NCBI GenBank assembly: GCA_001821765.1
Contig: MHOA01000013.1
Span: forward strand, 15,456-79,455
From: Candidatus Ryanbacteria bacterium RIFCSPLOWO2_12_FULL_44_26
GTDB lineage: Bacteria; Patescibacteriota; Minisyncoccia; Ryanbacterales; HO2-45-13
DNA length: 64,000 nt
Direction: 5' to 3'
Shown in pieces: positions 817-55,007 of this stretch. The notes below the pieces were generated by a model. It saw only the letters and a program-made list of their open reading frames with translations. It did not search any database and was not told where the DNA came from. Within the stretch, counting starts at the first letter, position 1. Every line of letters begins with the position of its first letter. A program made the translations under genes and the position numbers.

Positions 817-2274
817 TCAAATTGTTTCTACCCGATAGAGCGTCAGGAATAACCCCTCAAATAGCGTTTGAGTATTGCGGCTAGAGGGATCATTAAGCTG
901 GAAAAACTTATTCTCAAGGGCATATTGGGAGACGACGAGGAAGCAGGGTTTTTTTAGCATTGTTTTTTCTGTAACGATAATGGGTTTTTGAGGATTTCTG
1001 TAGTAGTTTATCGTTTCATGTGATGGCCAAGAAAATATATACACTGGTATTGCCTCCGATTTTATAAGTTCCCCAATAATTTTTTCTTCCTCGGCAGATC
1101 TGGTAAGACTAGATCCCATAGGCAAAAGCATTGTGCCATGTTCAGTGGGAAAGAAGATCTGTATAACCGTTGCAGTGAAAGCAGTTATGACGAGAGCGGA
1201 GACAGTAATGACAGTCATATACGGCCACCTTAACTTTGCCTTTCTGATCAGTGGTATGCCTGTACTTACTATAAAGAGCGCCATAAACGGAAACAGCGGT
1301 GCAATATAGAAAAAAAGTTTGGACGCTGAACTTCCAAATAGAAACAACATAAAAAGCGCGATGGATAAAGTTGTCAATTGAGCTTTCCTGCGAAAGAAAT
1401 TTCTCCAACCAGTAAGCAAAAAAGCTATAAGTACAATAACAAAAACGGCTGTCCACGGTTCAACAAACTTGATGAGGTGTTTGGTATAGTAAAACGGTAT
1501 TTGCGTTCCTATAACAGGGTTTGCGTAACGGCCTACTATGTTGCTTATTAAGTGGTTCCAGAAACTTTCTCCGTATAGTATGTGTTGCTGAATAAGCCAC
1601 GGGAGCAATATGGCGGTCATCAGCAATATACCAAACCAGAAATATCTGCTTAAAAGCCAATCCCACCTTTGATATATCAGTGAATGAATGAAGAAAAGTG
1701 GAATGGCAAGAAGACCAATAACGCTTTTAAGCAGAACTCCAACGGCAATTCCCATTCCAACGCCAATGTACCATGCCGGCTGATGCACACCTCTTATAAA
1801 TGCGTAGAAAGTAAAAAGAATTGCTGTAGTGACAGGGATATCCATACGTACTTGCCTGCCGCTAAATATAAAAATGGTTGTGGTAAGCAGAATAAAAGCG
1901 GCCCCTAAAGCGACTGTAGGGTCGCGGAAAAGGCGTAGCCCCATAAGCCATGTAAGAATGATCGCTAAGACAATGAAGAAAGCAGATGGGAGCCGGAGCG
2001 CAAGTTCCGTCTCGCCGAATATTCCCACGCTTGCCGCCATCATCCAGAACAGAAGTGGCGGTTTGTCGAACCACGGCTCTCCGTCTTTTGTAAAAGAAAG
2101 TAAATCTTTTCTCTGCAGGCTTTCATGGAGCACCTGCGCATATGTGGCTTCGTCATAGTCGATGAACGCGGAGCTGCCCAACTGAAAAAAAGAAAGAAAA
2201 AGTGCAGTAAGGAGCAATAAAGTGAAGATAAACCTGTAGTGAGTTTCATTTGCTATGTTCATGTCAGTCATCAT
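817..2274 (-). CDS. GT-C fold ArnT/PMT_2-family polyprenyl-phosphate-sugar dependent glycosyltransferase (membrane)
   Basis: About 12 hydrophobic helices. The first-loop motif DYDEATYAQV...DGEPWFDKPPLLFWMM is typical of ArnT/PMT_2. Confidence 0.7.
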   Translation of the reverse strand: MMTDMNIANETHYRFIFTLLLLTALFLSFFQLGSSAFIDYDEATYAQVLHESLQRKDLLSFTKDGEPWFDKPPLLFWMMAASVGIFGETELALRLPSAFFIVLAIILTWLMGLRLFRDPTVALGAAFILLTTTIFIFSGRQVRMDIPVTTAILFTFYAFIRGVHQPAWYIGVGMGIAVGVLLKSVIGLLAIPLFFIHSLIYQRWDWLLSRYFWFGILLMTAILLPWLIQQHILYGESFWNHLISNIVGRYANPVIGTQIPFYYTKHLIKFVEPWTAVFVIVLIAFLLTGWRNFFRRKAQLTTLSIALFMLFLFGSSASKLFFYIAPLFPFMALFIVSTGIPLIRKAKLRWPYMTVITVSALVITAFTATVIQIFFPTEHGTMLLPMGSSLTRSAEEEKIIGELIKSEAIPVYIFSWPSHETINYYRNPQKPIIVTEKTMLKKPCFLVVSQYALENKFFQLNDPSSRNTQTLFEGLFLTLYRVETI

Positions 2275-2405: not shown

Positions 2406-2510
2406 TATGAATTTCGTTTATCAAATAAGCAGCGCACATCCAAGAATCATGTTTACTGGTCATTATAATGTACGGAAATGCATTCAGCATTTCCTATCTC
2501 TAACGGGATG
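2406..2510 (+). repeat. Copy A of a conserved ~105-nt intergenic element (palindromic CATTATAATG, then hairpin GGAAATGC-ATTCA-GCATTTCC, then TATCTCTAACGGG-ATG)
   Basis: About 80-85% identical to 20072..20173 and 48499..48604. It lies directly upstream of the carbamoyltransferase start codon. Confidence 0.7.
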
Positions 2511-4322
2511 AATATTTTAGGAATTTCTGCTTTTTATCATGACAGCGCAGCTTGTCTTGTCCGCGACGGAAAAATTGTTGCAGCCGCACAAGAAGAGCGG
2601 TTTACCAGAAAAAAGCATGATTATTCTTTTCCTCAAAACGCTATTCGGTATTGTCTTAAAGAAGGGGGTCTTTCGGAAAGTGATATAAACTACGTCGCTT
2701 TTTATGATAAGCCATTTTTGAAGTTTGAGCGGATTCTTGAAACATATTTGGAGTATGCCCCCCGAGGTGTTCGGTCTTTTATAAAAGCAATGCCGCTTTG
2801 GATAAAGCAAAAGTTGTGGATTAGGGAGCTTATTCAAAAGGAACTTGCATATAAGAACGAAATTATTTTTCTTGAGCACCACGAATCTCACGCCGCCTCT
2901 GCCTTTTTTCCTTCTCCCTATCAGCATGCAGCGTTTCTGACGATGGATGGAGTTGGGGAGTGGGCTACGTCCAGTTTCGGAGTTGGTGAAGACAATCGCA
3001 TTCGGATTATTGCTGATATCCGTTTTCCCCACTCATTAGGGCTTTTATACTCGGCGTTTACATACTTTTGCGGCTTTAAGGTGAATTCCGGTGAATATAA
3101 ACTTATGGGGTTGGCTCCATATGGAGAAGAGGTTTATAAGGAGCTTATTTTAGAAAAGCTTGTTGATGTGAAGGAAGATGGTTCGTTTCGGATGAACATG
3201 GATTATTTTAATTATCCTTCCGGTCTTAAGATGACAAATAAAAAATTTGAGAAGCTCTTCGGCGGGCCGCCGAGGGCCGCGGAGTCAACGATAACACAGA
3301 GAGAAATGGACATCGCCCGTTCTATTCAGGAAGTTGTTGAGGAGATTGTGCTGCGAATGGGAAAGCATGTGTACAAAGAGACGAAAAAGGAGATGTTATG
3401 CCTCGCCGGCGGTGTTGCGCTAAACTGTGTGGCAAACGGCAAACTCCTTCGTGAAGGGCCGTTTAAGGACATATGGATTCAGCCGGCTGCGGGAGATGCC
3501 GGAGGGGCGGTTGGAGCGGCGCTGCTGGTTTGGTATCAGTATCTCCATAACAAACGTGAAGCCGGCAAAAACGATGCAATGCAGGGGGCGTATCTCGGGC
3601 CTTCCTACAGCAATGATGTTATAAAGCAGTTTTTACAGCAGAACGATATTTCTTTTACAGAGCTTTCAACGGACGAGATTCCGAAGCGAGTCTCCGATCT
3701 TATTGCAGATCAAAAAGTTGTCGGATGGTTCGAAGGGCGTATGGAGTTTGGTCCAAGGGCGCTTGGATCCCGCTCTATTCTAGGAGACGCTCGTTCTGCA
3801 AATATGCAGGAAATTATAAATGTAAAAATTAAATTTCGCGAATCGTTCCGTCCATTTGCGCCATCGGTCTTGGAAGAAAAAGCCGGGGACTATTTTGATA
3901 TTGATCGGCCATCCCCCTATATGTTGCTGGTTACGCCTGTAAAGCATAAGAAGAGAAAGCATATAAGTCCAAGAGATCAACACTTCACGGGGTTTAAAAA
4001 ATTACGGGTAGTACGGTCAGAGGTTCCTGCAGTAACGCACGTTGATTATTCAGCCCGTATTCAGACGGTCTCTCCCGACACAAATCCGCTTTATTACGCT
4101 ATGATAAAGCGGTTTTGGGAAGATTATGGCTGCCCTATTATTATAAATACGTCCTTTAATGTAAGAGGGGAGCCGATTGTTTGCACGCCCCAAGATGCGT
4201 ACAAATGCTTTATGCGCACCAACATGGATTACCTGCTTATGGGAAATTTTCTGCTTGATAAAAAGGATCAAAAACAAATTACGAGCGACAGCGCTTGGGA
4301 AAAGGGGCGCGAGCTGGATTAA
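2508..4322 (+). CDS. NodU/CmcH-family O-carbamoyltransferase
   Basis: N-terminal MNILGISAFYHDSAACLVRDGKIVAAAQEERFTRKKHD is typical of the NodU/CmcH family, and the length is about 600 aa. The start was chosen at MNILGIS, immediately after the repeat element. Confidence 0.85.
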   Translation: MNILGISAFYHDSAACLVRDGKIVAAAQEERFTRKKHDYSFPQNAIRYCLKEGGLSESDINYVAFYDKPFLKFERILETYLEYAPRGVRSFIKAMPLWIKQKLWIRELIQKELAYKNEIIFLEHHESHAASAFFPSPYQHAAFLTMDGVGEWATSSFGVGEDNRIRIIADIRFPHSLGLLYSAFTYFCGFKVNSGEYKLMGLAPYGEEVYKELILEKLVDVKEDGSFRMNMDYFNYPSGLKMTNKKFEKLFGGPPRAAESTITQREMDIARSIQEVVEEIVLRMGKHVYKETKKEMLCLAGGVALNCVANGKLLREGPFKDIWIQPAAGDAGGAVGAALLVWYQYLHNKREAGKNDAMQGAYLGPSYSNDVIKQFLQQNDISFTELSTDEIPKRVSDLIADQKVVGWFEGRMEFGPRALGSRSILGDARSANMQEIINVKIKFRESFRPFAPSVLEEKAGDYFDIDRPSPYMLLVTPVKHKKRKHISPRDQHFTGFKKLRVVRSEVPAVTHVDYSARIQTVSPDTNPLYYAMIKRFWEDYGCPIIINTSFNVRGEPIVCTPQDAYKCFMRTNMDYLLMGNFLLDKKDQKQITSDSAWEKGRELD

Positions 4323-4332
4323 ATAATGTATC

Positions 4333-4749
4333 ATGACTTATAAACAACTAAAATACATGTCGGGGGACAGAAAAGATTTAAGAAAATTCGGCATCACCAT
4401 CGGTGTTGTGTTTATGATGCTTGGGGTGTTATTTTTTTTGAAAGGCGGGCACAACGCAGTGTATCTTCTCTTTTTAGGAGTCGTGTTCACCGTGCTAGGA
4501 GTTACAGTCCCGCTTTTGTTAAAACCTTTTTATAGAATATGGATGACCGCAGCGGACATGCTCGGCCAGCTTGTTACAGGCATCATTTTGTGTATTCTGT
4601 TTTATATAGTGATAACCCCTCTCGGCTTTATTGCAAAACTTTTAGGCAAGCATTTTGTTGATCTGGGGTTTTACGTTAAGCAAGAAAGTTACTGGAATTA
4701 TAAGGAGCAAAAAGAGTTGGTAAACAGTGACTATGAACGGCAGTTCTAG
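4333..4749 (+). CDS. SxtJ-like small membrane protein (carbamoyltransferase-associated)
   Basis: 138 aa with 3-4 TM helices. Size and position match the sxtI-sxtJ-sxtK arrangement, directly downstream of the carbamoyltransferase. Confidence 0.45.
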   Translation: MTYKQLKYMSGDRKDLRKFGITIGVVFMMLGVLFFLKGGHNAVYLLFLGVVFTVLGVTVPLLLKPFYRIWMTAADMLGQLVTGIILCILFYIVITPLGFIAKLLGKHFVDLGFYVKQESYWNYKEQKELVNSDYERQF

Positions 4750-6013
4750 AAAAAAGATTTTCGTTGCCGGATCGGGTGTTTTTTTTATACTGGTCGGCCT
4801 TTTTTTAAATGAATGGCTTATTGCTTCCTGGTTTACTTACAGTGGCGCTCTTTCAGTAAAAGATCGCATTGCGGTTTGGATATTTGACATCTTGATGGTG
4901 GGGATGGGTGTTCTTTTGATTGTGTTGAGGGGGCGGGTTCATTTAACATTTGATAAGAAAAATTTTGCGCTATTTGTCGGCACTGTTGTATTTTTGTTTG
5001 TGCTTAGCGAGTTTTCCGCTCGGGTCATTGACCGTCTGCATGGAGGAGATTTTACCTATAACAAGGAACGTAATGAACAACAGCTTACACCGTTTCGAAT
5101 GTTCGGTCCTTCCTATTACGTGGAACAAGACGGCATAAGATATATTTCCAGTGTTCATAAGGAGCTGTACCCGTTTGAGAAAGGCAGGAACACCTATCGT
5201 ATTGTGGCATTTGGAGGGTCAACAACACAGAATGCAGTTGACGGGATACATTACCCCCTTGTTTTGGAACAGCTGCTTAAGGAGGAGTATCCTCAAAGAA
5301 ACATTGAAGTTATTAACATTGGCAATTCTGCTTATGCCACGCCCCATTTTATTATATCGCTTACGCTTGATGTAGTTTCATGGGAGAGTGACCTTATTAT
5401 TTTGAGTGAAAATATTAATGACCTCCTTGCTGGATATTTTCCTGACTTTCAACCTGATTATGCCAACAAATACAGGCATGCGGCATTTGTCCCGGAGATT
5501 TCAGCCCCCCGTATGTTATTGGGATGGTCGCGATTTTACTGGATAGTGAAGAGTCGCCTGGAAGCTTTGTCGTATCGTCTTGCTGACTATGGAGGCGTTG
5601 TTTTTAGACGCAGTTCCTATGGCAATGAGCCGCCGGTGGAAAGCCAGAAAATCTTCCGTCGCAATCTTCAAACGTTTGTTGAAATTGCGCGCGCCTATGA
5701 TATTCCTGTGGTACTGGGGACACAGCCGCTTGAAACGTCTGAGGAATATTGGAATCGCCATATGCGGTATAAGAAATACAACGGTATTGTTACTTATCCG
5801 CTGCACTCGGAGTTCATATCTCATCATCAAAGATTTAACGAAATTATTAGGGAAGTAGCGCGTGAGCAGAAGGCATATATCGTTGATAATGAAAAGATAT
5901 TTGCAGGAAAGAGCGTATTCTTTATTGATTTTGTGCATTACAGCAAAAAAGGGCTTGAGCAACTCGCTCGGAACTATTATAATGTTATTGTTTCCAACAA
6001 GTTCGTTCGCTAA
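4727..6013 (+). CDS. SGNH/GDSL-family hydrolase with N-terminal membrane anchor
   Basis: SGNH blocks are present: IVAFGGSTTQN (block I Ser), NIGNSAYAT (block III) and IDFVHYS (block V DxxH). N-terminal TM helices. Confidence 0.5.
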   Translation: MTMNGSSRKKIFVAGSGVFFILVGLFLNEWLIASWFTYSGALSVKDRIAVWIFDILMVGMGVLLIVLRGRVHLTFDKKNFALFVGTVVFLFVLSEFSARVIDRLHGGDFTYNKERNEQQLTPFRMFGPSYYVEQDGIRYISSVHKELYPFEKGRNTYRIVAFGGSTTQNAVDGIHYPLVLEQLLKEEYPQRNIEVINIGNSAYATPHFIISLTLDVVSWESDLIILSENINDLLAGYFPDFQPDYANKYRHAAFVPEISAPRMLLGWSRFYWIVKSRLEALSYRLADYGGVVFRRSSYGNEPPVESQKIFRRNLQTFVEIARAYDIPVVLGTQPLETSEEYWNRHMRYKKYNGIVTYPLHSEFISHHQRFNEIIREVAREQKAYIVDNEKIFAGKSVFFIDFVHYSKKGLEQLARNYYNVIVSNKFVR

Positions 6014-6101
6014 TCATTTGCGAATGTTATTATGACAAATACTTTCCAAAGCGGCATTCGTAACTATGTGAGTTTCATCAGAAACTAATGTGAGATCTTT
6101 T

Positions 6102-6260
6102 ATGTCAAAACTTTCCATTATTAAGGAACTTTGGGAATTTTTGCGAATTCGCAAAAAATGGTGGCTTGCGCCAATTGTTGTTTTTTTGGTCCTGCTCGGA
6201 GTTCTTATTGTCCTTACGGAGGGGTCGGCGGTAGCGCCGTTTATCTATACGTTATTTTGA
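6102..6260 (+). CDS. SxtK/DUF5989-like 52-aa membrane peptide (absent from the ORF track)
   Basis: Manual translation gives MSKLSIIKELWEFLRIRKKWWLAPIVVFLVLLGVLIVLTEGSAVAPFIYTLF. This family of ~50-aa peptides is characteristically found with carbamoyltransferase and SxtJ genes. Confidence 0.6.
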   Translation: MSKLSIIKELWEFLRIRKKWWLAPIVVFLVLLGVLIVLTEGSAVAPFIYTLF

Positions 6261-7093
6261 AACTTTTTGAATCCCCGAGAAATTCGCGCGATGTTGAACT
6301 CAACAATAAACCATCCTTTTATAACGTTTTCCACTGCGATAAGAAACAGCAAGACACCAAAAACCAAGGTAAGCCATGAGGTAAGCGGGTAGAACATGTA
6401 GTCAAGCAGGGTCAGTCGTTCAAACATCATAACGGCTCCCAAAACAAGAAGGATGATAAAAAATTCCTGGGTAAGGTGAAAAAGACGAGCGGGGATGTCA
6501 AACAGTTCCGGTTTCTCAAGGTTCCCATCAATGTCACCGTTTCCGTGTGTTGTGTTTGGAAGAAAGAAAAGCTCGGGGGATTTTATGTATTTTTTGATAA
6601 AGATCAGTTGCGATAAGCTGTTGGTTATTCGAATGACTATGAAAGAAAGCGCTGCTGTGACGCCTCCTATGTAAAGAAAAAGATCCGGTACCACTGTAAA
6701 CGGCGGCATCCCAAATGTGAAGCTCAGGAAAAAGACAGGAGGAATGATCAGATGATTTATTTCGTCTAGATAGATGCCTTTTAGTGACGCCCTTTTTTTA
6801 TATCTGGCTACTTCACCGTCGACCCTGTCAAGCAATGTGTGTACATATAAGGCCGCGATTCCTGTTATTTTTAACTCCCAGCTATCCTGGAAAACAAATA
6901 CGCACCCCACAATGCCCATAAGCAAGGCCGTTATGGTAATTTGGTTTGGGGTTATGGGGAATAACAGCAAAAAACGGGTTATGTAGATAGAGGGGCCACG
7001 CTGGAGGGTTTTATAACCAAATGGTCGTGACCATCCTTTTGGATGCACTTTTTCTTCCTGAAGCATTCTGCGTAATTCTTTAATTGACTCCAT
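6245..7093 (-). CDS. CDP-alcohol phosphatidyltransferase-family membrane protein
   Basis: LLDRVDGEVARYKKRASLKGIYLDE approximates the D-x2-DG-x2-AR...G...D signature. Multiple TM helices. Confidence 0.45.
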   Translation of the reverse strand: MESIKELRRMLQEEKVHPKGWSRPFGYKTLQRGPSIYITRFLLLFPITPNQITITALLMGIVGCVFVFQDSWELKITGIAALYVHTLLDRVDGEVARYKKRASLKGIYLDEINHLIIPPVFFLSFTFGMPPFTVVPDLFLYIGGVTAALSFIVIRITNSLSQLIFIKKYIKSPELFFLPNTTHGNGDIDGNLEKPELFDIPARLFHLTQEFFIILLVLGAVMMFERLTLLDYMFYPLTSWLTLVFGVLLFLIAVENVIKGWFIVEFNIARISRGFKKFQNNV

Positions 7094-7171
7094 AATATTC
7101 TAAATCCAAATTTGTAAAATCCAAATCACAAAACAAGCATATAAGCGCAAAATTTAAATGATAAAGCAATT

Positions 7172-8914
7172 TCATATATAAACTTTATTCTTTATTGAAC
7201 TAAATATCATATTTAAATTTGTTTTGTTATTTGTGCTTTGAATTTTGGATTTACTGTATTCATCTAGGATATCAAGAAGTGATTGCTGGGGTTTCCCATT
7301 GCTTCGCTGGATTTCTTCAATATGACGTACTGCCGTTGCAATATCTTTCTCTATCTCATAATAATATATTGCAAGATTTTCGTGGATAGGGAGGTAATGC
7401 GGGTTAAATGTTAATGCTTTTTCCCACGTGTCTCGTGCGTCCTCGAACCGGCCGAGTTTTAAAAAATAAAGAACGCCAAGGTTAAGATATGTATCGCTAT
7501 TGTATGGGTTTTTGGACAATTCCTTTTTAAATTCTTGTTCCGCCTCTTGAAAGCGGTTTGTGTAGTAATAAACAAGTCCGAGGTTGCCGTGAAGCACCTG
7601 TTCATCCGGATTTAGGGCGATGCCTTTTAGATACATCTCCTCGGCTTTATCATATATTCCCTTTTCCAGGTAAACGCTTCCCAGCCCGCTAAATGCTCTA
7701 GGGAGCGTGGGCGCGGTTTTTACCGCATGTTCCCAAAATTGCAGCCTATTTTTAAAGTTTTGGCTGTGTCGGATTGTAAGGAATGAGAAAACAAGGATAA
7801 GCAATACAATTGCTGCCGCAACACCGTGCTTTTCTGGTTTTATATTTTTTATAAAATCTATTTCCATAAGGATAATAAAAAGTCCTATCAGCGGAAGATA
7901 TATTCTGTGCTCGTAGAAGATGGGGGTCAACGATGGATCGTCTGTGAAAAACGAAGGCAGAAGAAAAACAAAAAACCACGCCGCGCCAAAGATAAGAAAT
8001 GGATATCGTTTTTCTTTGGAGAAAAACAAGAATAAAAGAACAAGAAGCATCGCGACCACTCCGTACATGAGCGTTGTATTTCCGAGCGTTGGCATTGCTG
8101 AAAGGTTAAACGGAAAGAAAATTTTCCCAACATAAAGCAGGATGGCGGGCGCATGTTCGACCATCGCTTTTATAATCTTAAATATTGGAAAGGCCGAAGC
8201 GCCGAGTGCCGCTTTTCTTGCGGCAAACCATATCAGCGTGAGGAGCAGCCATCCTGATGCGGGCCGGAGCAGACGGGCGTGCGCGTTTTTTATCCGCGCA
8301 ATCCCGTATGTGTAGAAGACTGCAAGCGGCAGAAAAAAAAGCGTTGACTCCTTCGTAAAAAGGGCTAAAAGATAAAAGAGCATGGAAACCGTATAGTGCT
8401 TCCACGTTGCAGTGTTTACATATCGGATGAAAAAGATGAATGCCAAAAGGATAAAAATCGTAAGCAGGCTGTCGTTTCTTCCGGGCAGCCATCCAACAGT
8501 TTGGGTGAGGATCGGGTGAGCGACAAATATGAGCGAAAAAAGAAGCGCAAGAGCTCGCTTGTATTGCATTGTTATAAGAAAGATGAAAAGCACGCTTGAA
8601 GCTGTAAGATGCAGGAGTATGTTTATAAGAAAATGCGGAAACGGAATTGCAGTGTTGCTAAAAAGCGCCCCGGCCATAAATGATACCGTAAGCATCGGAC
8701 GATAATAGGCAGACCGGTCAGTGGGATATAATATATCGTGCCTGAAAAACTGTAATATATTTGCAGGTTTGTTTAAAAAATGAAGGTTATGATGAATGAG
8801 TTTTGTGTCGTCGAAATAAACAAAGTCAAACGTCATGACAGGAGCATACATAATCCCTCCCAGCAACAGAATCCAAAGGAAAGGAAGATACCCTTTAAGC
8901 AGTGTGTGTTCCAT
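7172..8914 (-). CDS. TMTC-like GT-C glycosyltransferase fused to C-terminal TPR repeats
   Basis: N-terminal polytopic domain with FDFVYFDD (DD catalytic-loop motif). The C-terminal ~200 aa are TPR-like (AFSGLGSVYLEKGIYDKAEEMYLKGIALNP...). Confidence 0.6.
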   Translation of the reverse strand: MEHTLLKGYLPFLWILLLGGIMYAPVMTFDFVYFDDTKLIHHNLHFLNKPANILQFFRHDILYPTDRSAYYRPMLTVSFMAGALFSNTAIPFPHFLINILLHLTASSVLFIFLITMQYKRALALLFSLIFVAHPILTQTVGWLPGRNDSLLTIFILLAFIFFIRYVNTATWKHYTVSMLFYLLALFTKESTLFFLPLAVFYTYGIARIKNAHARLLRPASGWLLLTLIWFAARKAALGASAFPIFKIIKAMVEHAPAILLYVGKIFFPFNLSAMPTLGNTTLMYGVVAMLLVLLFLFFSKEKRYPFLIFGAAWFFVFLLPSFFTDDPSLTPIFYEHRIYLPLIGLFIILMEIDFIKNIKPEKHGVAAAIVLLILVFSFLTIRHSQNFKNRLQFWEHAVKTAPTLPRAFSGLGSVYLEKGIYDKAEEMYLKGIALNPDEQVLHGNLGLVYYYTNRFQEAEQEFKKELSKNPYNSDTYLNLGVLYFLKLGRFEDARDTWEKALTFNPHYLPIHENLAIYYYEIEKDIATAVRHIEEIQRSNGKPQQSLLDILDEYSKSKIQSTNNKTNLNMIFSSIKNKVYI

Positions 8915-8917
8915 GTG

Positions 8918-10351
8918 TTAATGTCCTTTTATAGAAGCAAGCGGCCTTATATATGCCAATGGTTGTATTATACCTTCCTGCTCAAACGCGCGCGTTACCT
9001 CAAAAAGTCCGTCCGAGTAGGTATGCGGAACACCTTTGAGTTTTTTTTCTTTGCGTTTTGAAATCAATGTTTGATGTAAAGGGTCTTTGGTGCTTTTCTT
9101 TTCATGTACATATCTTTCTATTGTTTTTGCGGCGCTTGGGGAAAGAGAATGAAAAGAAGACGTGATATTATTGCCCCCAACTCCAATATAGGAAAGTGTG
9201 TTATTGCTTCCGGAAATCATAACGGGTTTTTTAGAAAAGATGCGCATCGCATCTTGTCGGTGTACGATCAATTGTTGACCATCAATATATTCTTCAATAA
9301 TTGAATTATGCGCAGCATCCCAAAGAAACGATACCTTTGGGGCCTTTTCCGGCAAGCTTTCTTCCAAAGCGTCGATAAGACGCCGCAGTAGCGCTACGCG
9401 ATATCCGTAACCATAGTTCATTGCCGCTTTTATGGAGTGCAAAAGGCGTTTTCCTTCCTCGGTTTCCACCGGAATTTCCGGAAATGCTCTTGAGCTGAAA
9501 TAATATTTCCAGCGCTCCCGAAAGTGTTTTAAGCCATTTGGGTAGCCAAAATGAAAGATACATTTTAAGAAAAAAAGCGCGAATTTTTCTGATGTTTTAT
9601 TTTTTTTTCTATTGGCGAAATAGCGGCCTAAATGATAAGTGGCATGCCCCCCGCCGCCATGATAAAAAAACAGAAGCTGATTCTGCTTTATGTTAAATCG
9701 TTCCGCAAGCGCCTTGTCTTTAATAGTTTCAACATAGTGCAGTTCAAGAAAGTGGTTTCCCCCGAAATTATATCCCATTTCATGCTTGGCGTTTCTGTAA
9801 GAAGAGCGCGGGATGAGATGTTTGAGATTCAGGTTTTTCATTTCTTCGTTTGTAAAAAGAGAGCCCCCGTATTCAATATTTTCCAGTTCGCTTTCAGGGA
9901 GATTGTATTTTTTTGTTGCTGCTTTGGCGCCATGGACAAAAAAATCCTCTAATTCTGACTCTGTAAGGTCGTACGGGAGAAACGGTCGTTCTTCAATACC
10001 GATCCAGTTGAGAAACGTTTGAAACTTCCCGATTCTTTGGGGCACATGTATTCTTAAACGGCGCGCAAACATCACGAAAAATTCCGGCGAAAAGTCTTCT
10101 TTAAAAAGGGATGTGGTAAAAACAGACATGCCGCAATTAAGAGAGGGGGCCGAAAGCATCGGGACGATTGTTTTTTTAGTTGCTGTTACAAACTGGGGAG
10201 GAGATTCTAAACCCTCCTTTTTGTGGATATTCGGAAGGCAGATTGGAGGATAAGCAAGACTTTTGATCTTTTTTACGCGCTGCAATTGTTCACGGATGTA
10301 CGGGTCGGTGACTTTGTCGCAACCAAAGACCATGTCCATAAAAATTTCCAA
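8918..10351 (-). CDS. Divergent RtcB-family (RNA 3'-phosphate ligase-like) protein, paralog 1
   Basis: Conserved RtcB blocks are present: NCGM (GCGM), GNHFLELHY (GNHFIEI), FFYHGGGGHATYHLGRYF (HSGSRG...YF), AAHNSI, VHRQDA (RKGA) and the terminal ...IKGH. Two motifs deviate: PNIH in place of PDxH and FHSLS in place of HGAG. Confidence 0.5.
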   Translation of the reverse strand: MEIFMDMVFGCDKVTDPYIREQLQRVKKIKSLAYPPICLPNIHKKEGLESPPQFVTATKKTIVPMLSAPSLNCGMSVFTTSLFKEDFSPEFFVMFARRLRIHVPQRIGKFQTFLNWIGIEERPFLPYDLTESELEDFFVHGAKAATKKYNLPESELENIEYGGSLFTNEEMKNLNLKHLIPRSSYRNAKHEMGYNFGGNHFLELHYVETIKDKALAERFNIKQNQLLFFYHGGGGHATYHLGRYFANRKKNKTSEKFALFFLKCIFHFGYPNGLKHFRERWKYYFSSRAFPEIPVETEEGKRLLHSIKAAMNYGYGYRVALLRRLIDALEESLPEKAPKVSFLWDAAHNSIIEEYIDGQQLIVHRQDAMRIFSKKPVMISGSNNTLSYIGVGGNNITSSFHSLSPSAAKTIERYVHEKKSTKDPLHQTLISKRKEKKLKGVPHTYSDGLFEVTRAFEQEGIIQPLAYIRPLASIKGH

Positions 10352-10387
10352 TTACCAATTTCTAATTCCCAATTGGATTTTCAGCTG

Positions 10388-11815
10388 TCATCCTTTAAAC
10401 ACCGCTATTGGCCGCAGTTTTACTACCGGACGAGCAATACCTGCATTTTCCAGCTGTTGTACAACATAATCGACCCCTTCATTTGTAATGTGGTTTACAA
10501 TCTTTTGAAATGGCGGATGTGACTGGTAAATAACCGTTTTATATTTTTTGGGGTGAGTCGTTGTGTTATTTTTCTCCATCATTTTTTTTATTGTGGTGCC
10601 TGCGCCGTGATCTGATGAGAAAAGGTGCCGCTCGGCGTTTTGCATGCCGACCGCAATGTAGGAGTTGGTGTTGTTAAAACCAGATATAATAAGGGGTTTT
10701 TTGTCAAAGACACGATTTGCGGTATGCCGGTGCACAATAACGTTTTTTCCAGAAACGATTTCTTCGGTGATGGCGTTATGCGCGCCATCCCAAATTAAAC
10801 TCACCGTTGGTGTAGCAGGCGCCGCTTTGCCGAGACTGTCAATGATGCGTTTTATAATAGCCATGCGAAAACCATAGCTGTAATTGAGAGACGCCTTCGT
10901 TGCCATAAGAAGGCGTTTTCCTTCGGGTGAATTCGCAGGAATTTCCATAAAACGTGAAGAAAAAAAATAGTACCGAAGACGCTTTGGAGCATATTTCCAT
11001 TCCAAAGGGGAACCAAAGTGGAAAAGCGCTTTAAAAGCAAGTAGGTAGAGTTTTTGTGATGCCGTGTTTTTCTTTCTATTTCCAAAGTAGCGTCCTATAT
11101 GGTAAGAAACAGCGCCGCCGCCACCGTGATACATAATCACGATTCGATTTTTCTCCAGCCCCCATGCTTTTGCCAGCTTTTCGTCAAGCAATTCCTCAAT
11201 ATATTGAATTTCAAGAAAGTGATTTCCTTTAAACCCATATCCGATATTATGTCTCCCGGAGCGGTAAGAAACCCTTGGGAGGATTTTTTTTAAGTTTAAA
11301 CCGGCCAGTTCCTTTTTTGTAAAAAGCCCGCCCTCATATTCCACTTGTTTGAGGAAATCTGCCGGAAGGCCGTATATTGCTACAGCCGTTTTTGCTCCGT
11401 GTTTTATTATTTCTATAAAATCTCTTACAGAAAGGTCGTAGTGCATTTTCGGCCGCTCAATCAATCCAAACCAGTTAAGCATATTTTTTATTTTCCCGTA
11501 GTTTGGCCCCAACTCCGTTTGCATTGAGCTGTAGAAGCGTTCAAGAAACTGTTCAGTAATTGTTTCTTTTGAGATGGACGTAATAAGCGCCCCCATGCCG
11601 CAGCCAACTGACGGCGCTGTCAGTTCGGGCACTATGGTGTTTTGTGTCGCCGCTGCAAACGAGCAGGGACCCTCGGTGCGTTCTTTCATATGTAGATCTG
11701 GAAGGCATACGACAGGAAAAGCGAGACTCTTGAGTTTTGTAATGTGCGACAAAACACCTCGAATGCGGTTGTCTGAAAGATCACAGCCGAGAGAGTGAAT
11801 TTTAGAGGAATCCAT
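10388..11815 (-). CDS. Divergent RtcB-family protein, paralog 2 (canonical motifs better preserved)
   Basis: LPDLHMKE (PDxH), VGCGMGA, GNHFLEIQY, MYHGGGGAVSYHIGRYF, GAHNAI, VHRHTA, SSDHGAGT (His-nucleophile motif) and terminal AVFKG. Roughly 40% identical to paralog 1. Confidence 0.55.
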   Translation of the reverse strand: MDSSKIHSLGCDLSDNRIRGVLSHITKLKSLAFPVVCLPDLHMKERTEGPCSFAAATQNTIVPELTAPSVGCGMGALITSISKETITEQFLERFYSSMQTELGPNYGKIKNMLNWFGLIERPKMHYDLSVRDFIEIIKHGAKTAVAIYGLPADFLKQVEYEGGLFTKKELAGLNLKKILPRVSYRSGRHNIGYGFKGNHFLEIQYIEELLDEKLAKAWGLEKNRIVIMYHGGGGAVSYHIGRYFGNRKKNTASQKLYLLAFKALFHFGSPLEWKYAPKRLRYYFFSSRFMEIPANSPEGKRLLMATKASLNYSYGFRMAIIKRIIDSLGKAAPATPTVSLIWDGAHNAITEEIVSGKNVIVHRHTANRVFDKKPLIISGFNNTNSYIAVGMQNAERHLFSSDHGAGTTIKKMMEKNNTTTHPKKYKTVIYQSHPPFQKIVNHITNEGVDYVVQQLENAGIARPVVKLRPIAVFKG

Positions 11816-11852
11816 GATATAGTGTAGTATACGTTATTCTCCTTTATTTTCA

Positions 11853-12944
11853 ATGATAAAACTTCGCTACGTCACTTCACTGAAGTACCCCTCAAGGTAT
11901 GCTAATCGTCTGCAGGTGATGAAAATGTCTGAAGCATTTGCCCAGAAAGCCGACTACGCTCTTTTTGTCGCGTCTTGCCCTAACAAGAGGAACGTTTTTG
12001 AGGATTATGGAGTTACTGGTGATATTTCTATCCGGGAGATCGGAGGAGTGCCGGCGTTTCTTTGGCCAAAGAGTTTTTGGATTGCAATGCGTTTCAGGAA
12101 AATGATAGCAAGGGAACCGGCTGATGCCGTATTTTATATCAGAGACGTTCTGCTCGCGTTTTTTCTGACGTTTTTATCTGGAAAATTTCGCAACTGTTTT
12201 TTCTTTGAAATGCACTCTTTGGAGAAATTTCCGGATTTTGTTTATGGGAGAATTTTTTCCTGCGCACGCGGCGTTATCTCGACGAATGTTGAAAAAGAAA
12301 AAGCAGTGCATTTAAAATGGAACATCCAAAAAAAAGATATCATATCTTTTCCAAACGGTGTTGATATACGTCTTTTTCAGCGCCTTCCAAAGAAAGCAAC
12401 GTTAAGAAAAGAACTCTCGTTGCCCAGCAAAGATATCGTTGCGATGTATATAGGAAGCATGCAATACTGGAAAGGTGTTGAGACTATCCGGCAATGTGCG
12501 GAAGTGCTTAAGCAATATGTTTTTGTTATTGTTGGAGGCGCGGCAAAGAGGCGGGATGGCAATCTTTTGGAATTGCCTCGCGTTGCGCCGAATATGGTGC
12601 CGAGATTTCTTGGTGCGGCGGATGTATTGCTGGCGCCGTATCCAAAGCATTATAAGATAAGTAGCCGCTGGACCTCGCCTATGAAGCTTGCTGAATATAT
12701 GGCCTCCGGAACCCCGATTGTGGCGTCTGATGTGGTATCTGTGCGCGAGTTGCTTGATGTTTCAACCGCCCACCTTGTAAACTCGGCAGATGCGCGGCAA
12801 TTTTGCGATGGGATTCAATGGGCGGTTTCGCATATGGATGAAATGCATCTAAAGGCGGAAAAAGCGCAAAGGCGGGCAGAAGAGTTCACTTGGGAAAAAC
12901 GCGCCGGATGTATTGTGGATTTTGTCACCGAACACATCGGTTAA
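11853..12944 (+). CDS. Glycosyltransferase family 1 (GT4)
   Basis: C-terminal RFLGAADVLLAPYPKHYK...KLAEYMASGTPIVASDV follows the EX7E-type GT1 pattern. Confidence 0.7.
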   Translation: MIKLRYVTSLKYPSRYANRLQVMKMSEAFAQKADYALFVASCPNKRNVFEDYGVTGDISIREIGGVPAFLWPKSFWIAMRFRKMIAREPADAVFYIRDVLLAFFLTFLSGKFRNCFFFEMHSLEKFPDFVYGRIFSCARGVISTNVEKEKAVHLKWNIQKKDIISFPNGVDIRLFQRLPKKATLRKELSLPSKDIVAMYIGSMQYWKGVETIRQCAEVLKQYVFVIVGGAAKRRDGNLLELPRVAPNMVPRFLGAADVLLAPYPKHYKISSRWTSPMKLAEYMASGTPIVASDVVSVRELLDVSTAHLVNSADARQFCDGIQWAVSHMDEMHLKAEKAQRRAEEFTWEKRAGCIVDFVTEHIG

Positions 12945-12947
12945 GTT

Positions 12948-14279
12948 ATGAAAAAGGACATTCTTATCGTTGTATGCATTGCATTTGTGTTACGCCTCGC
13001 TTTTTCTTTTGTCGTGGCTGAGCGTGTGGGACCGGGCGCTTTTGAGGATGTACGGCCGATGAGTGATGCAGGACAATACATTGCTCTTACAAAGAATATA
13101 TTAGACAATCAGACGTTTACACTTTACGGAGAGCCGCACAGTTTTCGCACTCCCGGTTATCCGGCCTTTCTCGCATTTTGGTATTGGTTAAGCGGCAGCT
13201 GGTTTTTTAGTGTTGCAGTAGTGGGAAGCGCTTTGGGAGCCTTGAGTGCCGGTGTTACATATATCATTGGAAGAGAACTTTTTTCCCGCACTGTTGGTTT
13301 GCTGGCCGGAGCGTTTTTTGCATTTGAACCATATGGAGCGCACATGGCGGCGCGTCCCATGACAGAATCTGTTTACACAATACTTGTTGCGCTTCTCGCA
13401 TTTTTTATTGTTCGGTTTTACCGTTCTTCCTCAAAGCGTGCGGTGCTGTATATTTTCCTTTCAGGATTAGTTGTGGGGCTTGCCGTTTGGGTAAGGCCGC
13501 AACTATGGCCGTTTTATGTGTTCCCAATGACACTGGTTGTTTTTCTTACTTCCAGAAACGTTCATCAAGCCAAAACTGCCCTTCTGTCAGCAGTACTGTT
13601 CATTGGTGTCGCGGCGCTTGTTATTGTTCCATGGATTGTCCGGAATGCCGTGCTGTTTGGTGAGCCGTCCATAAGTTCCCAAGGTGGATGGAATCTCTAT
13701 TTTTATCACACAAAACGTTTTACCGGATCAGAGCGTTTCTTTGGTTTAGAAAACGATGAAATAAGGCGATTTTTGGAAATACGTCTTGGAAAGCCCGGAC
13801 CTGATGATATTCGAAGTATTGTATACCAGCCGATTTATTATACCGAGGCTTTTAACATCATTTTACAAAGGCCCGCATCTTACGCTTTTTGGCATATCAA
13901 AGAGTCGCTGGTGTTTTTTTATGATGATGGCATAAGAGATGTGCTTCGGCATATGGGCGCGGAATCTTCTTTTACGTTTGAGAGCATATCAGCAGCGCAG
14001 ATACTAAAATCGCCAACAGCTCTTTTGGCGTTGGGAGGCGTTGCTTTTTGGATAGGAGTATTTTTGCTTGCCGGATACGGCGCATGGCAGGGAATATGGA
14101 AGGGAACTCCTGTAATCAGGTGTGCGACCATTTTTTTTCTCTTGACTATTCTTTATGTGCCGTTTGTTGCTGGCACTCTTGCGGTGGCTCGTTTTCGCTT
14201 TCCATTGACGCCAATGATATTTCCGCTTTTTGGCTTTGGGCTTTGTATGTTATGGGAAAGATTAAAATGGGCCGTTTAG
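12948..14279 (+). CDS. GT-C fold ArnT/PMT_2-like glycosyltransferase (membrane)
   Basis: Polytopic. The first-loop motif MSDAGQYIALTKNILDNQTFTLYGEP is ArnT-like. Confidence 0.65.
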   Translation: MKKDILIVVCIAFVLRLAFSFVVAERVGPGAFEDVRPMSDAGQYIALTKNILDNQTFTLYGEPHSFRTPGYPAFLAFWYWLSGSWFFSVAVVGSALGALSAGVTYIIGRELFSRTVGLLAGAFFAFEPYGAHMAARPMTESVYTILVALLAFFIVRFYRSSSKRAVLYIFLSGLVVGLAVWVRPQLWPFYVFPMTLVVFLTSRNVHQAKTALLSAVLFIGVAALVIVPWIVRNAVLFGEPSISSQGGWNLYFYHTKRFTGSERFFGLENDEIRRFLEIRLGKPGPDDIRSIVYQPIYYTEAFNIILQRPASYAFWHIKESLVFFYDDGIRDVLRHMGAESSFTFESISAAQILKSPTALLALGGVAFWIGVFLLAGYGAWQGIWKGTPVIRCATIFFLLTILYVPFVAGTLAVARFRFPLTPMIFPLFGFGLCMLWERLKWAV

Positions 14280-18547: not shown

Positions 18548-20050
18548 TTGGTTATGTTTCATATCATATTTCCAATCATTGTCGTAGCTACGCTCACTTT
18601 TTCTTTTTACAGTCCCGTTGGTGATTTTACACCATTACAGAAGATAAGTCACATGCCCCGCTGTATTGGGAACTTCCTTACAACAATGAGCGCAGCACAT
18701 GACGCTTGCCGCGCGCTCGGAGTGGCCATTACTTCAACTCCAAAATTTTGGCGCGATGAATCCATCCCTTATGAAATAGCACGCACGTATGCAGAACTGG
18801 GGAAGCTTGATGTTGTGACAGAGCCGGGTGTTGTTGACGGCCGGCCCTATCTTACGCATGCAACGGGGTTTCCGCTTACCATTTCTTTAGCCGGATTTTT
18901 TAAACTGTTTGGTGTCGGGGTGGTTCAATCAAGGATATTTATGACGTTTTGGATTGTTGCCGTACTGATGGTGCTGTATTTAGTGCTGAGAAGTTTTTTT
19001 GGGCCGTTTCAGGCCGGTTTTGGCACCCTGTTAGTTTCTACGTTTAGCTCTTTTTATGCAAATGGCCGTACGTTTACCGGTGAAATTCCGGGCTTTCTCT
19101 TTTTACTGCTGGCTCTTTTTTTCATTTATAGAAAGAAACAATATATTCTTGGAGGCATGTTGCTCGCGATTGCTGTGGTGACAAAGCCGTCTGTGTACTT
19201 ATTGCTATTGCCCGCAGCAGCGTTTGAGTTTTTTATTTGGGATTTTAAGAAATCACTACGGTTTGGCGCTCGTTTAGCAATAGGAGTGCTCCCTGTAATT
19301 TTGTTATGGATTTTTATTATTTTACCCCAGCCTTTTAGCGTTGAGAGTTGGGCTGGCATGATTGATCTTTACAGACATCCGTTTAATGAACCGTCGCTGT
19401 TTTCAAGGTTGCCGGAGGCGTTTTTTGATCTTTTAACCAACTCCACGATATGGTACTTTGGGTTTTTGCTCGGGCTTATTTTGTTTTCCTACAGTAAAGG
19501 CGTTTTTAGAGATGATCAGAAGAGGTTATTGCATTTTTTCTTGCTTTTTGGCGTTTTGAGTATTATTTATTTTTTACGAAGCCCCGGGTGGTTTCGGTAC
19601 CTTCTCGTTACAGAGTTGTTCATCTTGGCGTTTACATTCCCAGCTGCAGATTCTTTAGTCCAAAAAAGAAGGTCGGCGGCTGTTTCGTTTGCCGGATTAT
19701 TAGTGGTGATTCAGGTATTGAATTTTTTCTTCTTTTCTGATATTCCTTCAGGGAGGGTAAGTATTAGCACGGCAGAGTTTATTAACAAGCAACTGCTTTT
19801 AGGCAACGATTCCACCATAGGGTTTATACACATGCCAACCGTAGCGCCGCTTATCTCATCCCACCGCAAGTATCAAATTGCACAGATTGGAGGGAAAGAA
19901 ACCTACGGCAAGCACCCTCTTATGCTTCCGGAAGAAAAACTTCCAGATTACATTATTGGCTATCAAGGTGAATATAACGACATCTTCGAGAGGCACTATG
20001 AGTTTGCGTTTGTAACGCCCGAAGGGTTTAAAATTTATAGAAAAAAATGA
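18548..20050 (+). CDS. GT-C fold ArnT/PMT_2-like glycosyltransferase (membrane)
   Basis: RDESIPYEIARTYAELGKLDVVTEPGVVDGRPYLTHATGFPL matches the ArnT DE...Y.EIA...G first-loop pattern. Polytopic. The exact start is uncertain. Confidence 0.55.
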   Translation: MVMFHIIFPIIVVATLTFSFYSPVGDFTPLQKISHMPRCIGNFLTTMSAAHDACRALGVAITSTPKFWRDESIPYEIARTYAELGKLDVVTEPGVVDGRPYLTHATGFPLTISLAGFFKLFGVGVVQSRIFMTFWIVAVLMVLYLVLRSFFGPFQAGFGTLLVSTFSSFYANGRTFTGEIPGFLFLLLALFFIYRKKQYILGGMLLAIAVVTKPSVYLLLLPAAAFEFFIWDFKKSLRFGARLAIGVLPVILLWIFIILPQPFSVESWAGMIDLYRHPFNEPSLFSRLPEAFFDLLTNSTIWYFGFLLGLILFSYSKGVFRDDQKRLLHFFLLFGVLSIIYFLRSPGWFRYLLVTELFILAFTFPAADSLVQKRRSAAVSFAGLLVVIQVLNFFFFSDIPSGRVSISTAEFINKQLLLGNDSTIGFIHMPTVAPLISSHRKYQIAQIGGKETYGKHPLMLPEEKLPDYIIGYQGEYNDIFERHYEFAFVTPEGFKIYRKK

Positions 20051-20173: not shown

Positions 20174-20869
20174 AAAGTTTCAATAATCATTCCTGTTTAC
20201 AACGAGGCAAAAACAATTCAGCGTATTGTTGATGTTGTTCGTGTCGCTTCATTCGGTTTTGAGGCCCAAAGAGAAATAATTGTCATTGACGATGGATCCG
20301 CTGACGGCACTTATGAGGCGCTGAAAAGCATTAAAGGAATTAAGGTGTTGCATTTTGAACGCAATCAAGGAAAGGGCGCGGCGCTAAAGGCAGGCTTTGG
20401 GCAGGCATCTGGGGATTTTGTTATTATTCAGGATGCGGATTTGGAATATGATCCAGCCGATTACGCTATTTTATTAAAACCCATGTATGAGGGGAAAGCC
20501 GACGTTGTGTTTGGTTCTCGGTTTAGGGGAGAATACCAGCGGGTGCTCTATTTTTGGCATTATTTCGGAAATTTTCTTTTAACGCTTCTTTCCAATATGT
20601 TTACTAATTTAAACCTCTCGGATATGGAAACGGGATATAAAGTGTTTAAGCGGGAGGTTGTCAAATCGTTCACTCCTCATTTAAGGTCAAAGCGTTTTGG
20701 TATAGAACCGGAAATAACAGCGCGTGTGGCACGGGGCGGTTGGCGTATCTATGAAGTGCCAATCAATTATTATGGACGCACATATGAGGAGGGCAAAAAG
20801 ATACGATGGTACGACGGGGTAAAAGCCATTGCAGCAATTTTATATTTTAATCTTTTTGATCGCCGATGA
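20171..20869 (+). CDS. GT2 polyprenyl-phosphate sugar synthase (DPM1-like)
   Basis: MKVSIIIPVYNEAKT...IVIDDGSADGT...IIQDADLEYDP...VFGSRF. Paralog of 16732..17445. Confidence 0.8.
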   Translation: MKVSIIIPVYNEAKTIQRIVDVVRVASFGFEAQREIIVIDDGSADGTYEALKSIKGIKVLHFERNQGKGAALKAGFGQASGDFVIIQDADLEYDPADYAILLKPMYEGKADVVFGSRFRGEYQRVLYFWHYFGNFLLTLLSNMFTNLNLSDMETGYKVFKREVVKSFTPHLRSKRFGIEPEITARVARGGWRIYEVPINYYGRTYEEGKKIRWYDGVKAIAAILYFNLFDRR

Positions 20870-29298: not shown

Positions 29299-29970
29299 TC
29301 AATATTCGACGGTATCCTTGCCGCTCATCAGTTCTACAGACTCAACTCCGCGAGCTTGACGGAGCTCATCAACAAGCCGTGATGCATAAGAAGGATCGGT
29401 GAGCTGAATGCCGAGGGTAAATTCTCTTAAGCCGTCATGGAGCGTTTTAACTGAAATAGTATGTAAGCCCTTAAGCGATGTTTTCCAAGGGCCGGTTTCT
29501 TCGGGTATGAATGGTTCTCGAGCGGCAATAACAAGAATATGTCCCCCGCGGCTTACTGAAGCAAAATCAAATTGGTACAGAATCAGAATAATAACAGAGA
29601 CAAGGAGTGTTCCGATGGTGGCAACCGTATAATTACTGGTCCCGACTGCTACGCCGATTGCCAGAGAAAAGAACACAAAAGCAATGTCGCGCGTCTCTTT
29701 TACGATCGTTCGGAAGCGGATAAGAGCAAAGGCGCCTAAAAGGGCAAAGGCGCCCACAATATTTTCCGCCACAACCATCATAATGAGGCTCGCAATGATT
29801 CCCATCAAAACAATGGTAAAAACAAACGACTGCGAATAGGACAGCGTTCGGTGGGTTTTTCGGTATACCCATGCAATAATAAGTTCCAGGAAAAACACAT
29901 ACAGAATATTCAGCACAACGACAGCCGCATTAATTTCCGTTTCTGCGAGTAAAAGAAAGTTATCAAACAT
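29299..29970 (-). CDS. DUF4956-family membrane protein
   Basis: Four to five TM helices. The conserved core ALLGAFALIRFRTIVKETRDIAFVFFSLAIGVAVGT is DUF4956-like. Confidence 0.55.
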   Translation of the reverse strand: MFDNFLLLAETEINAAVVVLNILYVFFLELIIAWVYRKTHRTLSYSQSFVFTIVLMGIIASLIMMVVAENIVGAFALLGAFALIRFRTIVKETRDIAFVFFSLAIGVAVGTSNYTVATIGTLLVSVIILILYQFDFASVSRGGHILVIAAREPFIPEETGPWKTSLKGLHTISVKTLHDGLREFTLGIQLTDPSYASRLVDELRQARGVESVELMSGKDTVEY

Positions 29971-29985
29971 ACGACATATTATAAC

Positions 29986-30693: not shown

Positions 30694-30870
30694 GTTTATT
30701 TAACGCGTGAATACTTGTCTGCTGTTTTGGGTGTATCAAAGTGAAGGGTTGTCATCGAATAGGTGTTATCTTCGAAAAAGCGGTTTTTTTCGGATTTGGT
30801 TCCATGCCATGTCTTATTAGGACTTTCCGAATTTCTTCCGCAGCCCTTTTAAGACAGAGTGCATTGAAAC

Positions 30871-36984: not shown

Positions 36985-36993
36985 TTTGCGTAT

Positions 36994-39253: not shown

Positions 39254-39264
39254 TCCGCGTTTTA

Positions 39265-54971: not shown

Positions 54972-55007
54972 CAGGGCGTTATTCATAGGGTACGGTAATT
55001 TCACGCA

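Follow-up and report, generated by a model that had tools for sequence, protein, structure and literature searches.

A conserved module of RtcB-like proteins and a CDP-alcohol phosphotransferase homologue in surface-polysaccharide loci suggests a non-RNA role within the RtcB family

The window analysed here, a stretch of 64,000 nucleotides (nt) from a Candidatus Ryanbacteria genome (Patescibacteria, or Candidate Phyla Radiation, CPR), carries on its minus strand two adjacent genes of the RtcB family, which is otherwise described for RNA ligation. Closely downstream lies a gene for a membrane-bound, variant CDP-alcohol phosphotransferase, and the combination recurs among surface-polysaccharide genes in at least eight phyla. 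This conserved module suggests an undescribed non-RNA job for the RtcB family. The proteins are likely to act not in RNA repair but, together with the phosphotransferase-like partner, in the chemistry of glycans or glycolipids. The full scheme, to which we give close to an even chance, is that the pair belongs to a non-canonical RtcB branch that would activate a small phosphate compound with guanosine monophosphate (GMP) and hand the resulting GDP-X to its dedicated partner. The upstream gene is termed RtcB-like A (paralog 2 of an initial annotation, which was made from the DNA letters) and the downstream gene RtcB-like B (its paralog 1); coordinates without a locus label are window positions (Table 1).

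Identity and fold of the pair

Both genes encode full-length members of the RtcB family. The Pfam model PF01139 matches them from end to end (profile positions 1-426) with 166.3 bits for A and 145.4 bits for B at a cut-off of 27, and the E-values of the two open reading frames (ORFs) are 2e-48 and 4e-42. AlphaFold2 models computed on family alignments reach a pLDDT of 94.3 and a pTM of 0.93 for A, and 88.6 and 0.90 for B. When these models were compared with the PDB by Foldseek, the significant matches were RtcB structures only (16, with TM scores of about 0.65-0.72), among them TTHA1785, P. horikoshii RtcB and human RTCB; the best E-values were 1e-30 for A and 6e-25 for B, and the next non-RtcB matches had E > 0.1. 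The call of two adjacent minus-strand RtcB-family genes in the initial annotation is thus borne out by profile and predicted fold alike. Its length of 475 residues for A also stands, whereas the 477 residues given for B belong to the mechanical ORF (8918-10351, from a TTG at 10351); database gene calls, including the identical database protein P0114, give 473 residues.

The relationship to housekeeping RtcB is distant. The curated NCBIfam RtcB models (PRK09588, release_rtcB) score at best 102 and 80 bits, far under their cut-off of 407, and in public databases these proteins are labelled 'tRNA-splicing ligase RtcB' or 'hypothetical'. A and B share 44% identity over 469 residues, and neither has a hydrophobic or transmembrane (TM) segment by hydropathy. 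In a neighbour-joining tree without bootstrap, the two are sister clades within the Patescibacteria branch, so that the pair appears to have arisen there by duplication.

Active-site residues

Residues are numbered as in P. horikoshii RtcB, onto which the family was mapped by a profile-to-PH1602 alignment, and counts are taken over 90 A-type and 75 B-type orthologues. In canonical RtcB, the metal M1 is held by His234, His329 and Cys98 and the metal M2 by Cys98, Asp95 and His203; His404 is the nucleophile, Glu206 and Lys480 read the guanine, and Asn202 and Asn330 contact phosphates (PMC9745838). The 5'-OH strand is bound at its first two phosphates by Arg238 (Arg189 in E. coli), and Asn202 anchors the attacking hydroxyl; the E. 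coli R189A exchange slows sealing 200-fold and RNAppG formation only 3-fold (PMC8051266).

Much of this site is retained in both copies: Cys98, Asn202, His203, Glu206, His234, His329 and Lys480 are invariant (A 90/90, B 75/75), and Asn330 is kept in 89/90 and 74/75 sequences, respectively. The M1 ligands are therefore complete in both, whereas the M2 set is incomplete, with Cys98 and His203 kept and Asp95 replaced by Ser in A (89/90) and by Ala (58) or Ser (17) in B. Arg238 is Gly in every A-type and B-type orthologue (90/90 and 75/75) and in all distant members, which read 'HGGGG' where canonical enzymes have 'HTGSR'. The copies part at the nucleophile, His404, which is present in all 90 A-type sequences and in none of the 75 B-type ones (Pro in 61, Ala in 14), and at Asp65, which is Asp in 88/90 A-type and Asn in 75/75 B-type sequences. 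A and all single-copy relatives retain His404 across deep divergence. As judged from these positions, A retains the residues for binding of guanosine triphosphate (GTP) and for guanylylation and is without one M2 ligand and the polynucleotide clamp; the loss of the Arg238 clamp, together with the retention of the guanylylation residues in A, counts in favour of GMP transfer to something other than RNA. B, which cannot be guanylylated, is under strong purifying selection and would thus be a conserved pseudo-enzyme-like partner rather than a gene in decay.

The initial annotation had listed the hallmark RtcB motif blocks, all of which are present in A, and had proposed that B is a diverged, non-catalytic partner, which agrees with the uniform loss of the nucleophile. 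Of the exchanges it named in B, PNIH for PDLH is correct. The pairing of FHSLS with DHGAG is not: in BLAST and profile alignments DHGAG lies opposite 'SPSAA', the His of 'FHSLS' is found four residues upstream of the nucleophile position and is not conserved, and the nucleophilic His is replaced by Pro in the window protein.

Two further features set the branch apart. The HGGGG loop is followed by about 25 inserted residues that form two helices (A residues about 245-285); this insertion is specific to the clade and not found in P. horikoshii RtcB. It contains invariant Lys249, Lys262 and Tyr283 and near-invariant Arg247, Phe265, His266 and Phe284, and is a candidate for a new element that binds substrate or partner. 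In the branch from distant phyla, Cys98 is replaced by Asp and Asp95 by Ala, so that the metal site is remodelled otherwise than in the Patescibacteria branch. The residues at D65, D95, C98, N202, H203, E206, H234, R238, H329, H404 and K480 read D-A-D-N-H-E-H-G-H-H-K there (L028-L069; e.g. L030 5998-7386 and L048 5893-7290).

A conserved membrane-bound partner

The strongest clue to the function of the pair was overlooked by the initial annotation: a CDP-alcohol phosphotransferase gene in the same operon, conserved as a partner across phyla. On the minus strand the genes follow each other head to tail in the order A, B, a protein with TM helices and tetratricopeptide repeats (TPR), and the phosphotransferase homologue. 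Scans of positions 5900-12100 for promoter and terminator consensus sequences gave sites not above those in shuffled sequence, and the operon structure is therefore read from strand and spacing alone. In the window and likewise in L022, the TM and TPR protein separates B from the phosphotransferase; it is absent from most orthologous loci and therefore not core to the module. The initial annotation had placed the pair between a GT1 enzyme and a TPR-fused GT-C transferase. Both neighbours are there, the N-terminal part of the TPR protein being without a Pfam GT-C match.

Table 1. Genes of the module and its immediate surroundings in the window
Feature	Position	Strand	Description
Variant CDP-alcohol phosphotransferase (partner)	6245-7093	-	282 aa, ~6 TM helices; PF01066 35.6 bits, cut-off 22
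TM and TPR protein	7172-8914	-	~10 TM helices (residues 1-385, hydropathy); TPR Pfam matches at 405-515
RtcB-like B	8918-10339	-	473 aa from ATG at 10339; conserved copy lacking the His nucleophile
RtcB-like A	10388-11815	-	475 aa, ATG start, soluble; predicted catalytic subunit
Glycos_transf_1/GT4 glycosyltransferase	11853-12944	+	Pfam match; divergent from RtcB-like A

A scan of GTDB with one genome per species yielded 62 loci. Twenty are in Patescibacteria-type metagenome-assembled genomes (Ryan-, Giovannoni- and Campbellbacteria, Saccharibacteria-labelled genomes and one labelled Methanosarcinales, L026), and 42 form a distant branch of 25-32% identity, with Eisenbacteria, Rokubacteria/Methylomirabilota, Nitrospirae, Acidimicrobiia, Pirellulales/Planctomycetia, Verrucomicrobiia and Limnocylindrales among its members. 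Both genes were placed by the domain coordinates of hidden Markov models (HMMs) built from the window proteins and their relatives, and linkage could be assessed at 53 loci (16 Patescibacteria, 37 distant), the other nine being interrupted by contig ends. In 40 of the 53 (Patescibacteria 15/16, distant 25/37), from at least eight phyla, the partner gene follows downstream in the same orientation, usually with a gap of less than 70 nt or an overlap. Relatives at 65%, 53% and 38% identity show the order A, B, CDP-OH_P_transf again, and in those at 45% identity, which have a single copy, CDP-OH_P_transf comes directly after the RtcB-like gene. Where both types exist, it is invariably B that adjoins the partner gene; one genome has A on one contig and B with the partner on another. 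The pair need not be strictly adjacent, since in the Parcubacteria locus L003 (11400-13562; = L014) A and B are separated by four small ORFs on the minus strand, of which one has a PaaX_M match and a faint Cas2 match.

The partner itself is a distinct variant of its family. Its motif reads D-x-x-D-G-x-x-A-R-x8-G-x3-D-x3-H. Of the family signature DxxDGxxAR...GxxxDxxxD, the first and second Asp, the Gly, Ala, Arg, second Gly and third Asp are present, and the fourth signature Asp is His in all 45 linked partners and in all 119 database homologues. Its best relatives in the PDB are AF2299 (E 4e-10) and IPCT-DIPPS, both of which are fused to cytidylyltransferase or cytidylyltransferase-like domains. 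NCBIfam models for archaetidylinositol-phosphate and PIP (inositol-phosphate-type) synthases match it weakly, far under cut-off. A sister subgroup of the His-variant transferase, at 32-34% identity to the window protein (L072 7001-7819, L073 7001-7816), directly follows a cytidylyltransferase::phosphoenolpyruvate (PEP) mutase fusion, phosphonopyruvate decarboxylase (Ppd) and an Fe-alcohol dehydrogenase (Fe-ADH) in phosphonate clusters, which suggests that its members move a phosphonate activated by cytidine monophosphate (CMP). Activation by a nucleotidyl group, CMP, before transfer is established logic in the phosphonate setting (PMC6697681). PEP mutase, Ppd, Fe-ADH or a comparable nucleotidyltransferase were found in none of 69 related RtcB-linked loci. 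The lack of a nucleotidyltransferase there argues that the RtcB-like protein fills the slot that this enzyme has in the sister systems. The tie of the module to phosphonate and heptose genes, as drawn in the initial annotation, is for the same reason not general. No fusion of the partner with a nucleotidyltransferase or of an RtcB-like protein with the partner was found.

Glycan context and the wider family

Wherever the neighbourhood was inspected, the module lies among genes for surface polysaccharides, so that the glycan context postulated for the window extends to orthologous and very distant loci. Recurrent neighbours are GT4, GT2 and PMT_2 (GT-C) glycosyltransferases, Wzy_C polymerases or ligases and Wzx-type flippases, besides sugar aminotransferases, epimerases, methyl-, acetyl- and sulfotransferases, AsnB and Wzz/GNVR. 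In most related loci a GT4 gene, divergent or co-directional, lies beside the RtcB-like gene, as in L001, L003, L007, L048, L059, L071 and L075. In the distant locus L075, the row GT4-GT4-RtcB-like-partner-acetyltransferase is joined by 4-nt overlaps, and a normal initiating enzyme of the Bac_transf type is encoded nearby. A role of the partner as the initiating phosphoglycosyl transferase of its cluster was also considered and is weakened by this Bac_transf gene. L007 (10001-12062) contains a single-copy RtcB-like gene of 27% identity in a GT4/Wzy/flippase/LytR locus, where a thymidylate-kinase-like P-loop gene follows in place of the CDP-alcohol phosphotransferase.

The rank of the canonical RtcBs was seen in an exhaustive profile search against 1.84 billion representatives. 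A large non-canonical RtcB-like radiation, in which Asp95 and Arg238 are replaced, outscores the canonical RtcBs ('DDC...HTGSR'), which appear only near 200 bits. The search also found a fusion of a Wzx-type flippase (Polysacc_synt) with a C-terminal RtcB-like domain (P0240, 996 aa) and fusions of an N-terminal HPr-kinase-like P-loop domain ('GLPGCGKTT') with an RtcB-like domain (P0227, 885 aa; P0308, 755 aa).

Genes of RNA metabolism are not part of this picture. Archease, RtcA/RtcR, PrfH and RNA genes were found neither in the window nor in 75 related loci, and tRNA and Rfam scans of the 64 kb window gave no match; a canonical RtcB from the same search (P0112), which serves as a control, adjoins archease. 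The context of tRNA or RNA-repair genes that would have spoken against a glycan role is thus not seen.

A possible mechanism

Because the fold and the active-site residues are kept (His404 in copy A), the chemistry is probably that of RtcB, that is, formation of a His-GMP intermediate followed by GMP transfer to a phosphate monoester. We infer GTP use, a non-RNA substrate, hand-off to the partner and a role of B, and the module could operate in the following manner: A would react with GTP and Mn2+ to A-(His403)-GMP (step 1) and move the GMP to the phosphate of X-P, a small phosphomonoester other than a nucleic acid, such as an alcohol-, polyol- or sugar-phosphate, to give G(5')pp-X, i.e. GDP-X (step 2). 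These steps would equate to steps 1 and 2 of RtcB. The equivalent of RtcB step 3 would be performed by the partner, on which a hydroxyl may attack the activated phosphate with GMP leaving; the generic chemistry of its family is NDP-alcohol + R-OH -> R-O-P-alcohol + NMP (nucleoside di- and monophosphate, respectively). In the end, a lipid-linked glycan at the cytoplasmic face would carry a substituent in phosphodiester linkage, and the RtcB-like protein would take the place of the cytidylyltransferase that usually feeds such transferases. B, which keeps the metal and guanine-nucleotide pocket, may act as a non-catalytic subunit, either in binding or presenting the activated intermediate or in docking A to the partner.

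The scheme can be compared with several known systems. With the RtcB RNA ligases (P. horikoshii PH1602, E. coli RtcB, human RTCB) the pair shares the fold, membership of the Pfam family, the M1 ligands, His203, Asn202, Asn330 and the guanine contacts. It differs from them by Ser or Ala for Asp95, Gly for Arg238, the insertion of about 25 residues and a copy without nucleophile, and by its fixed position beside a membrane CDP-alcohol phosphotransferase in place of an archease, RtcA, RtcR or PrfH context. According to the work cited in PMC10630183 and PMC4381079, E. coli RtcB caps DNA as 3'pp5'G and M. xanthus RtcB3 caps 5'-phosphate ends of DNA and RNA with GMP. As far as these descriptions go, the family can halt after GMP transfer at a stable G(5')pp-X, as in the proposed step 2; the likeness to RtcB3 is one of described activity, and the substrates there are polynucleotide ends, whereas the context here points to a small-molecule, glycan or lipid phosphate. 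The second half of the scheme would follow the logic of IPCT-DIPPS, AF2299, LicC/LicD and PntC in phosphocholine or phosphonate decoration, namely soluble activation with an NMP and subsequent phosphodiester transfer with NMP release; the partner is homologous to AF2299/DIPPS, and its sister subgroup is linked to the cytidylyltransferase-PEP mutase fusion. In contrast to the cytidylyltransferase pairs, the activator would have the RtcB fold with a covalent His-GMP, not a Rossmann-type fold, and the nucleotide would be guanosine, not cytidine; the partner further differs from cytidylyltransferase-linked transferases by the His in place of the fourth signature Asp.

Several points weigh against the scheme. 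The partner is missing at 13 assessable loci, so that an RtcB-like enzyme can work alone, although several of the 13 are second copies in genomes that also hold a linked copy. Linkage stands for functional coupling and says nothing of the order of reactions. The replacement of Asp95 by Ser or Ala, and of Cys98 by Asp in the distant branch, could mean that metal binding, and hence guanylylation, is altered or lost, and the basic residues of the insertion might stand in for Arg238 and allow binding of a polynucleotide. To our knowledge, CDP-alcohol phosphotransferases are known with cytidine donors, and the use of a guanosine donor would be unprecedented.

A wider formulation, which is tentative and to which we assign somewhat less than an even chance, would embrace the whole RtcB branch of at least eight phyla: its members would be GTP-dependent His-GMP enzymes acting outside nucleic acids, which make GDP-linked sugar-, polyol- or lipid-phosphate donors for His-variant transferases and are split into a catalytic and a nucleophile-less subunit in Patescibacteria.

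Alternative explanations

The most serious competitor of the donor-supply scheme, itself unlikely, is a self-contained non-RNA ligase. The RtcB-like proteins would then carry out all three RtcB steps on a phosphorylated glycan, sugar or lipid and a hydroxyl, with a phosphodiester as the product, and the phosphotransferase would perform a separate step with a conventional CDP-alcohol. The invariance of Asn202, the anchor of the attacking hydroxyl in RtcB (PMC8051266), is in line with this, and so are the partner-less loci, about a quarter of those assessable, which still lie in exopolysaccharide contexts with Wzz/GNVR and AsnB; the His-less B might even specialise in sealing, a step for which the nucleophile is not needed. 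However, a cytidylyltransferase from which the partner could draw a CDP-alcohol is absent from the linked loci, and both the tight, translationally coupled order of RtcB-like gene and partner and the nucleotidyltransferase-linked sister transferases fit donor supply better.

Less probable still is the activation of a lipid, in which polyprenyl phosphate or phosphatidic acid would be converted to a GDP-lipid, analogous to CDP-diacylglycerol or CDP-archaeol, and the partner would put the lipid-phosphate on a sugar or polyol as a primer or anchor. Most CDP-alcohol phosphotransferases do use lipid CDP-alcohols, the weak NCBIfam matches of the partner are to archaetidylinositol-phosphate and PIP synthases, and a flippase::RtcB-like fusion exists. 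Moreover, neither the window nor those Patescibacteria loci that were examined yielded an initiator of the Bac_transf or MraY type. The RtcB-like proteins, however, are without TM or obvious membrane-binding segments, the best structural relatives of the partner take soluble CDP-alcohols, and the normal Bac_transf initiator beside the module in L075 indicates that a priming role is not required.

That the pair is a genuine RNA or DNA end-joining or capping enzyme, for example for housekeeping tRNA or rRNA repair in reduced genomes, with an incidental position among glycan genes, is very improbable. Both proteins are bona fide PF01139 members with an RtcB fold and, in A, intact guanylylation residues; the 2023 review of the family gives only nucleic-acid roles for RtcB, every characterised RtcB acting on nucleic acids (PMC10630183). 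Against this stand the linkage to the variant transferase and polysaccharide genes, which holds down to 25-30% identity and in at least eight phyla, the loss of Arg238 and Asp95, scores far under every NCBIfam RtcB cut-off, and a neighbourhood without archease, RtcA, RtcR, PrfH, tRNA or other RNA genes, where the canonical control adjoins archease. No literature was found that joins RtcB to CDP-alcohol phosphotransferases, to Patescibacteria or to polysaccharides and glycosyltransferases, although an earlier mention in an RNA-repair survey cannot be fully excluded.

Least probable of all is a non-enzymatic role, in which both copies would serve the membrane glycan machinery as regulatory or scaffold subunits that sense GTP/GMP or a metal. 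For such a role the strongly conserved, nucleophile-less B and the clade-wide remodelling of the metal site could be adduced. The invariance of His404 and the other catalytic residues in A and the single-copy relatives speaks against it, as it is hard to explain without catalysis.

Other genes in the window

Besides the module, the window contains several further sets of genes. The phosphonate (35374-40026) and heptose-like (54414-58085) clusters noted in the initial annotation are indeed present. The former consists of a PEP mutase::nucleotidyltransferase fusion (35374-36984), phosphonopyruvate decarboxylase (36994-38127), an Fe-alcohol dehydrogenase (38120-39253) and a second nucleotidyltransferase (39265-40026); unlike the clusters of L072 and L073, it has no CDP-alcohol phosphotransferase of its own. 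It is preceded by a TagF-like glycerophosphotransferase (32479-33636) and a radical-SAM/SPASM gene on the minus strand (33769-35241). The latter comprises a HAD phosphatase, a GHMP kinase, a transaldolase-family protein, a SIS-domain isomerase and a nucleotidyltransferase, which is consistent with a pathway to a nucleotide-heptose or a related sugar.

A trio of DUF4956, VTC-domain and CotH-family kinase genes (29299-32190, minus strand) lies beside a Wzx-type flippase (27902-29188), and a carbamoyltransferase of the NodU/CmcH type, a small SxtJ-like protein and a GDSL-family protein follow each other at 2478-6013, which suggests O-carbamoylation or acyl modification of a glycan. Six GT-C paralogues of the PMT_2 type are distributed over the window (817-2274, 12948-14279, 18548-20050, 20866-22185, 44889-46289 and 50898-52328). 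The Pfam scan took in most ORFs of at least 150 aa, and among these no initiating phosphoglycosyl transferase of the Bac_transf or MraY/WecA type was found.

Implications

If the proposed scheme is correct, the module would represent a previously undescribed route to phosphodiester linkages in bacterial surface glycans and, with it, a new enzymatic logic in glycan synthesis, in which a covalent His-GMP enzyme takes over the nucleotide activation otherwise done by a Rossmann nucleotidyltransferase. Hundreds of probably wrong 'tRNA-splicing ligase RtcB' annotations in genomes of CPR and soil bacteria would likewise be accounted for. The pair of a catalytic and a His-less copy would be a clean example of a pseudoenzyme partner born by tandem duplication. 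The episymbiotic lifestyle of the uncultured Patescibacteria is mediated by their cell surfaces, and the hypothesis bears on the chemistry of these.

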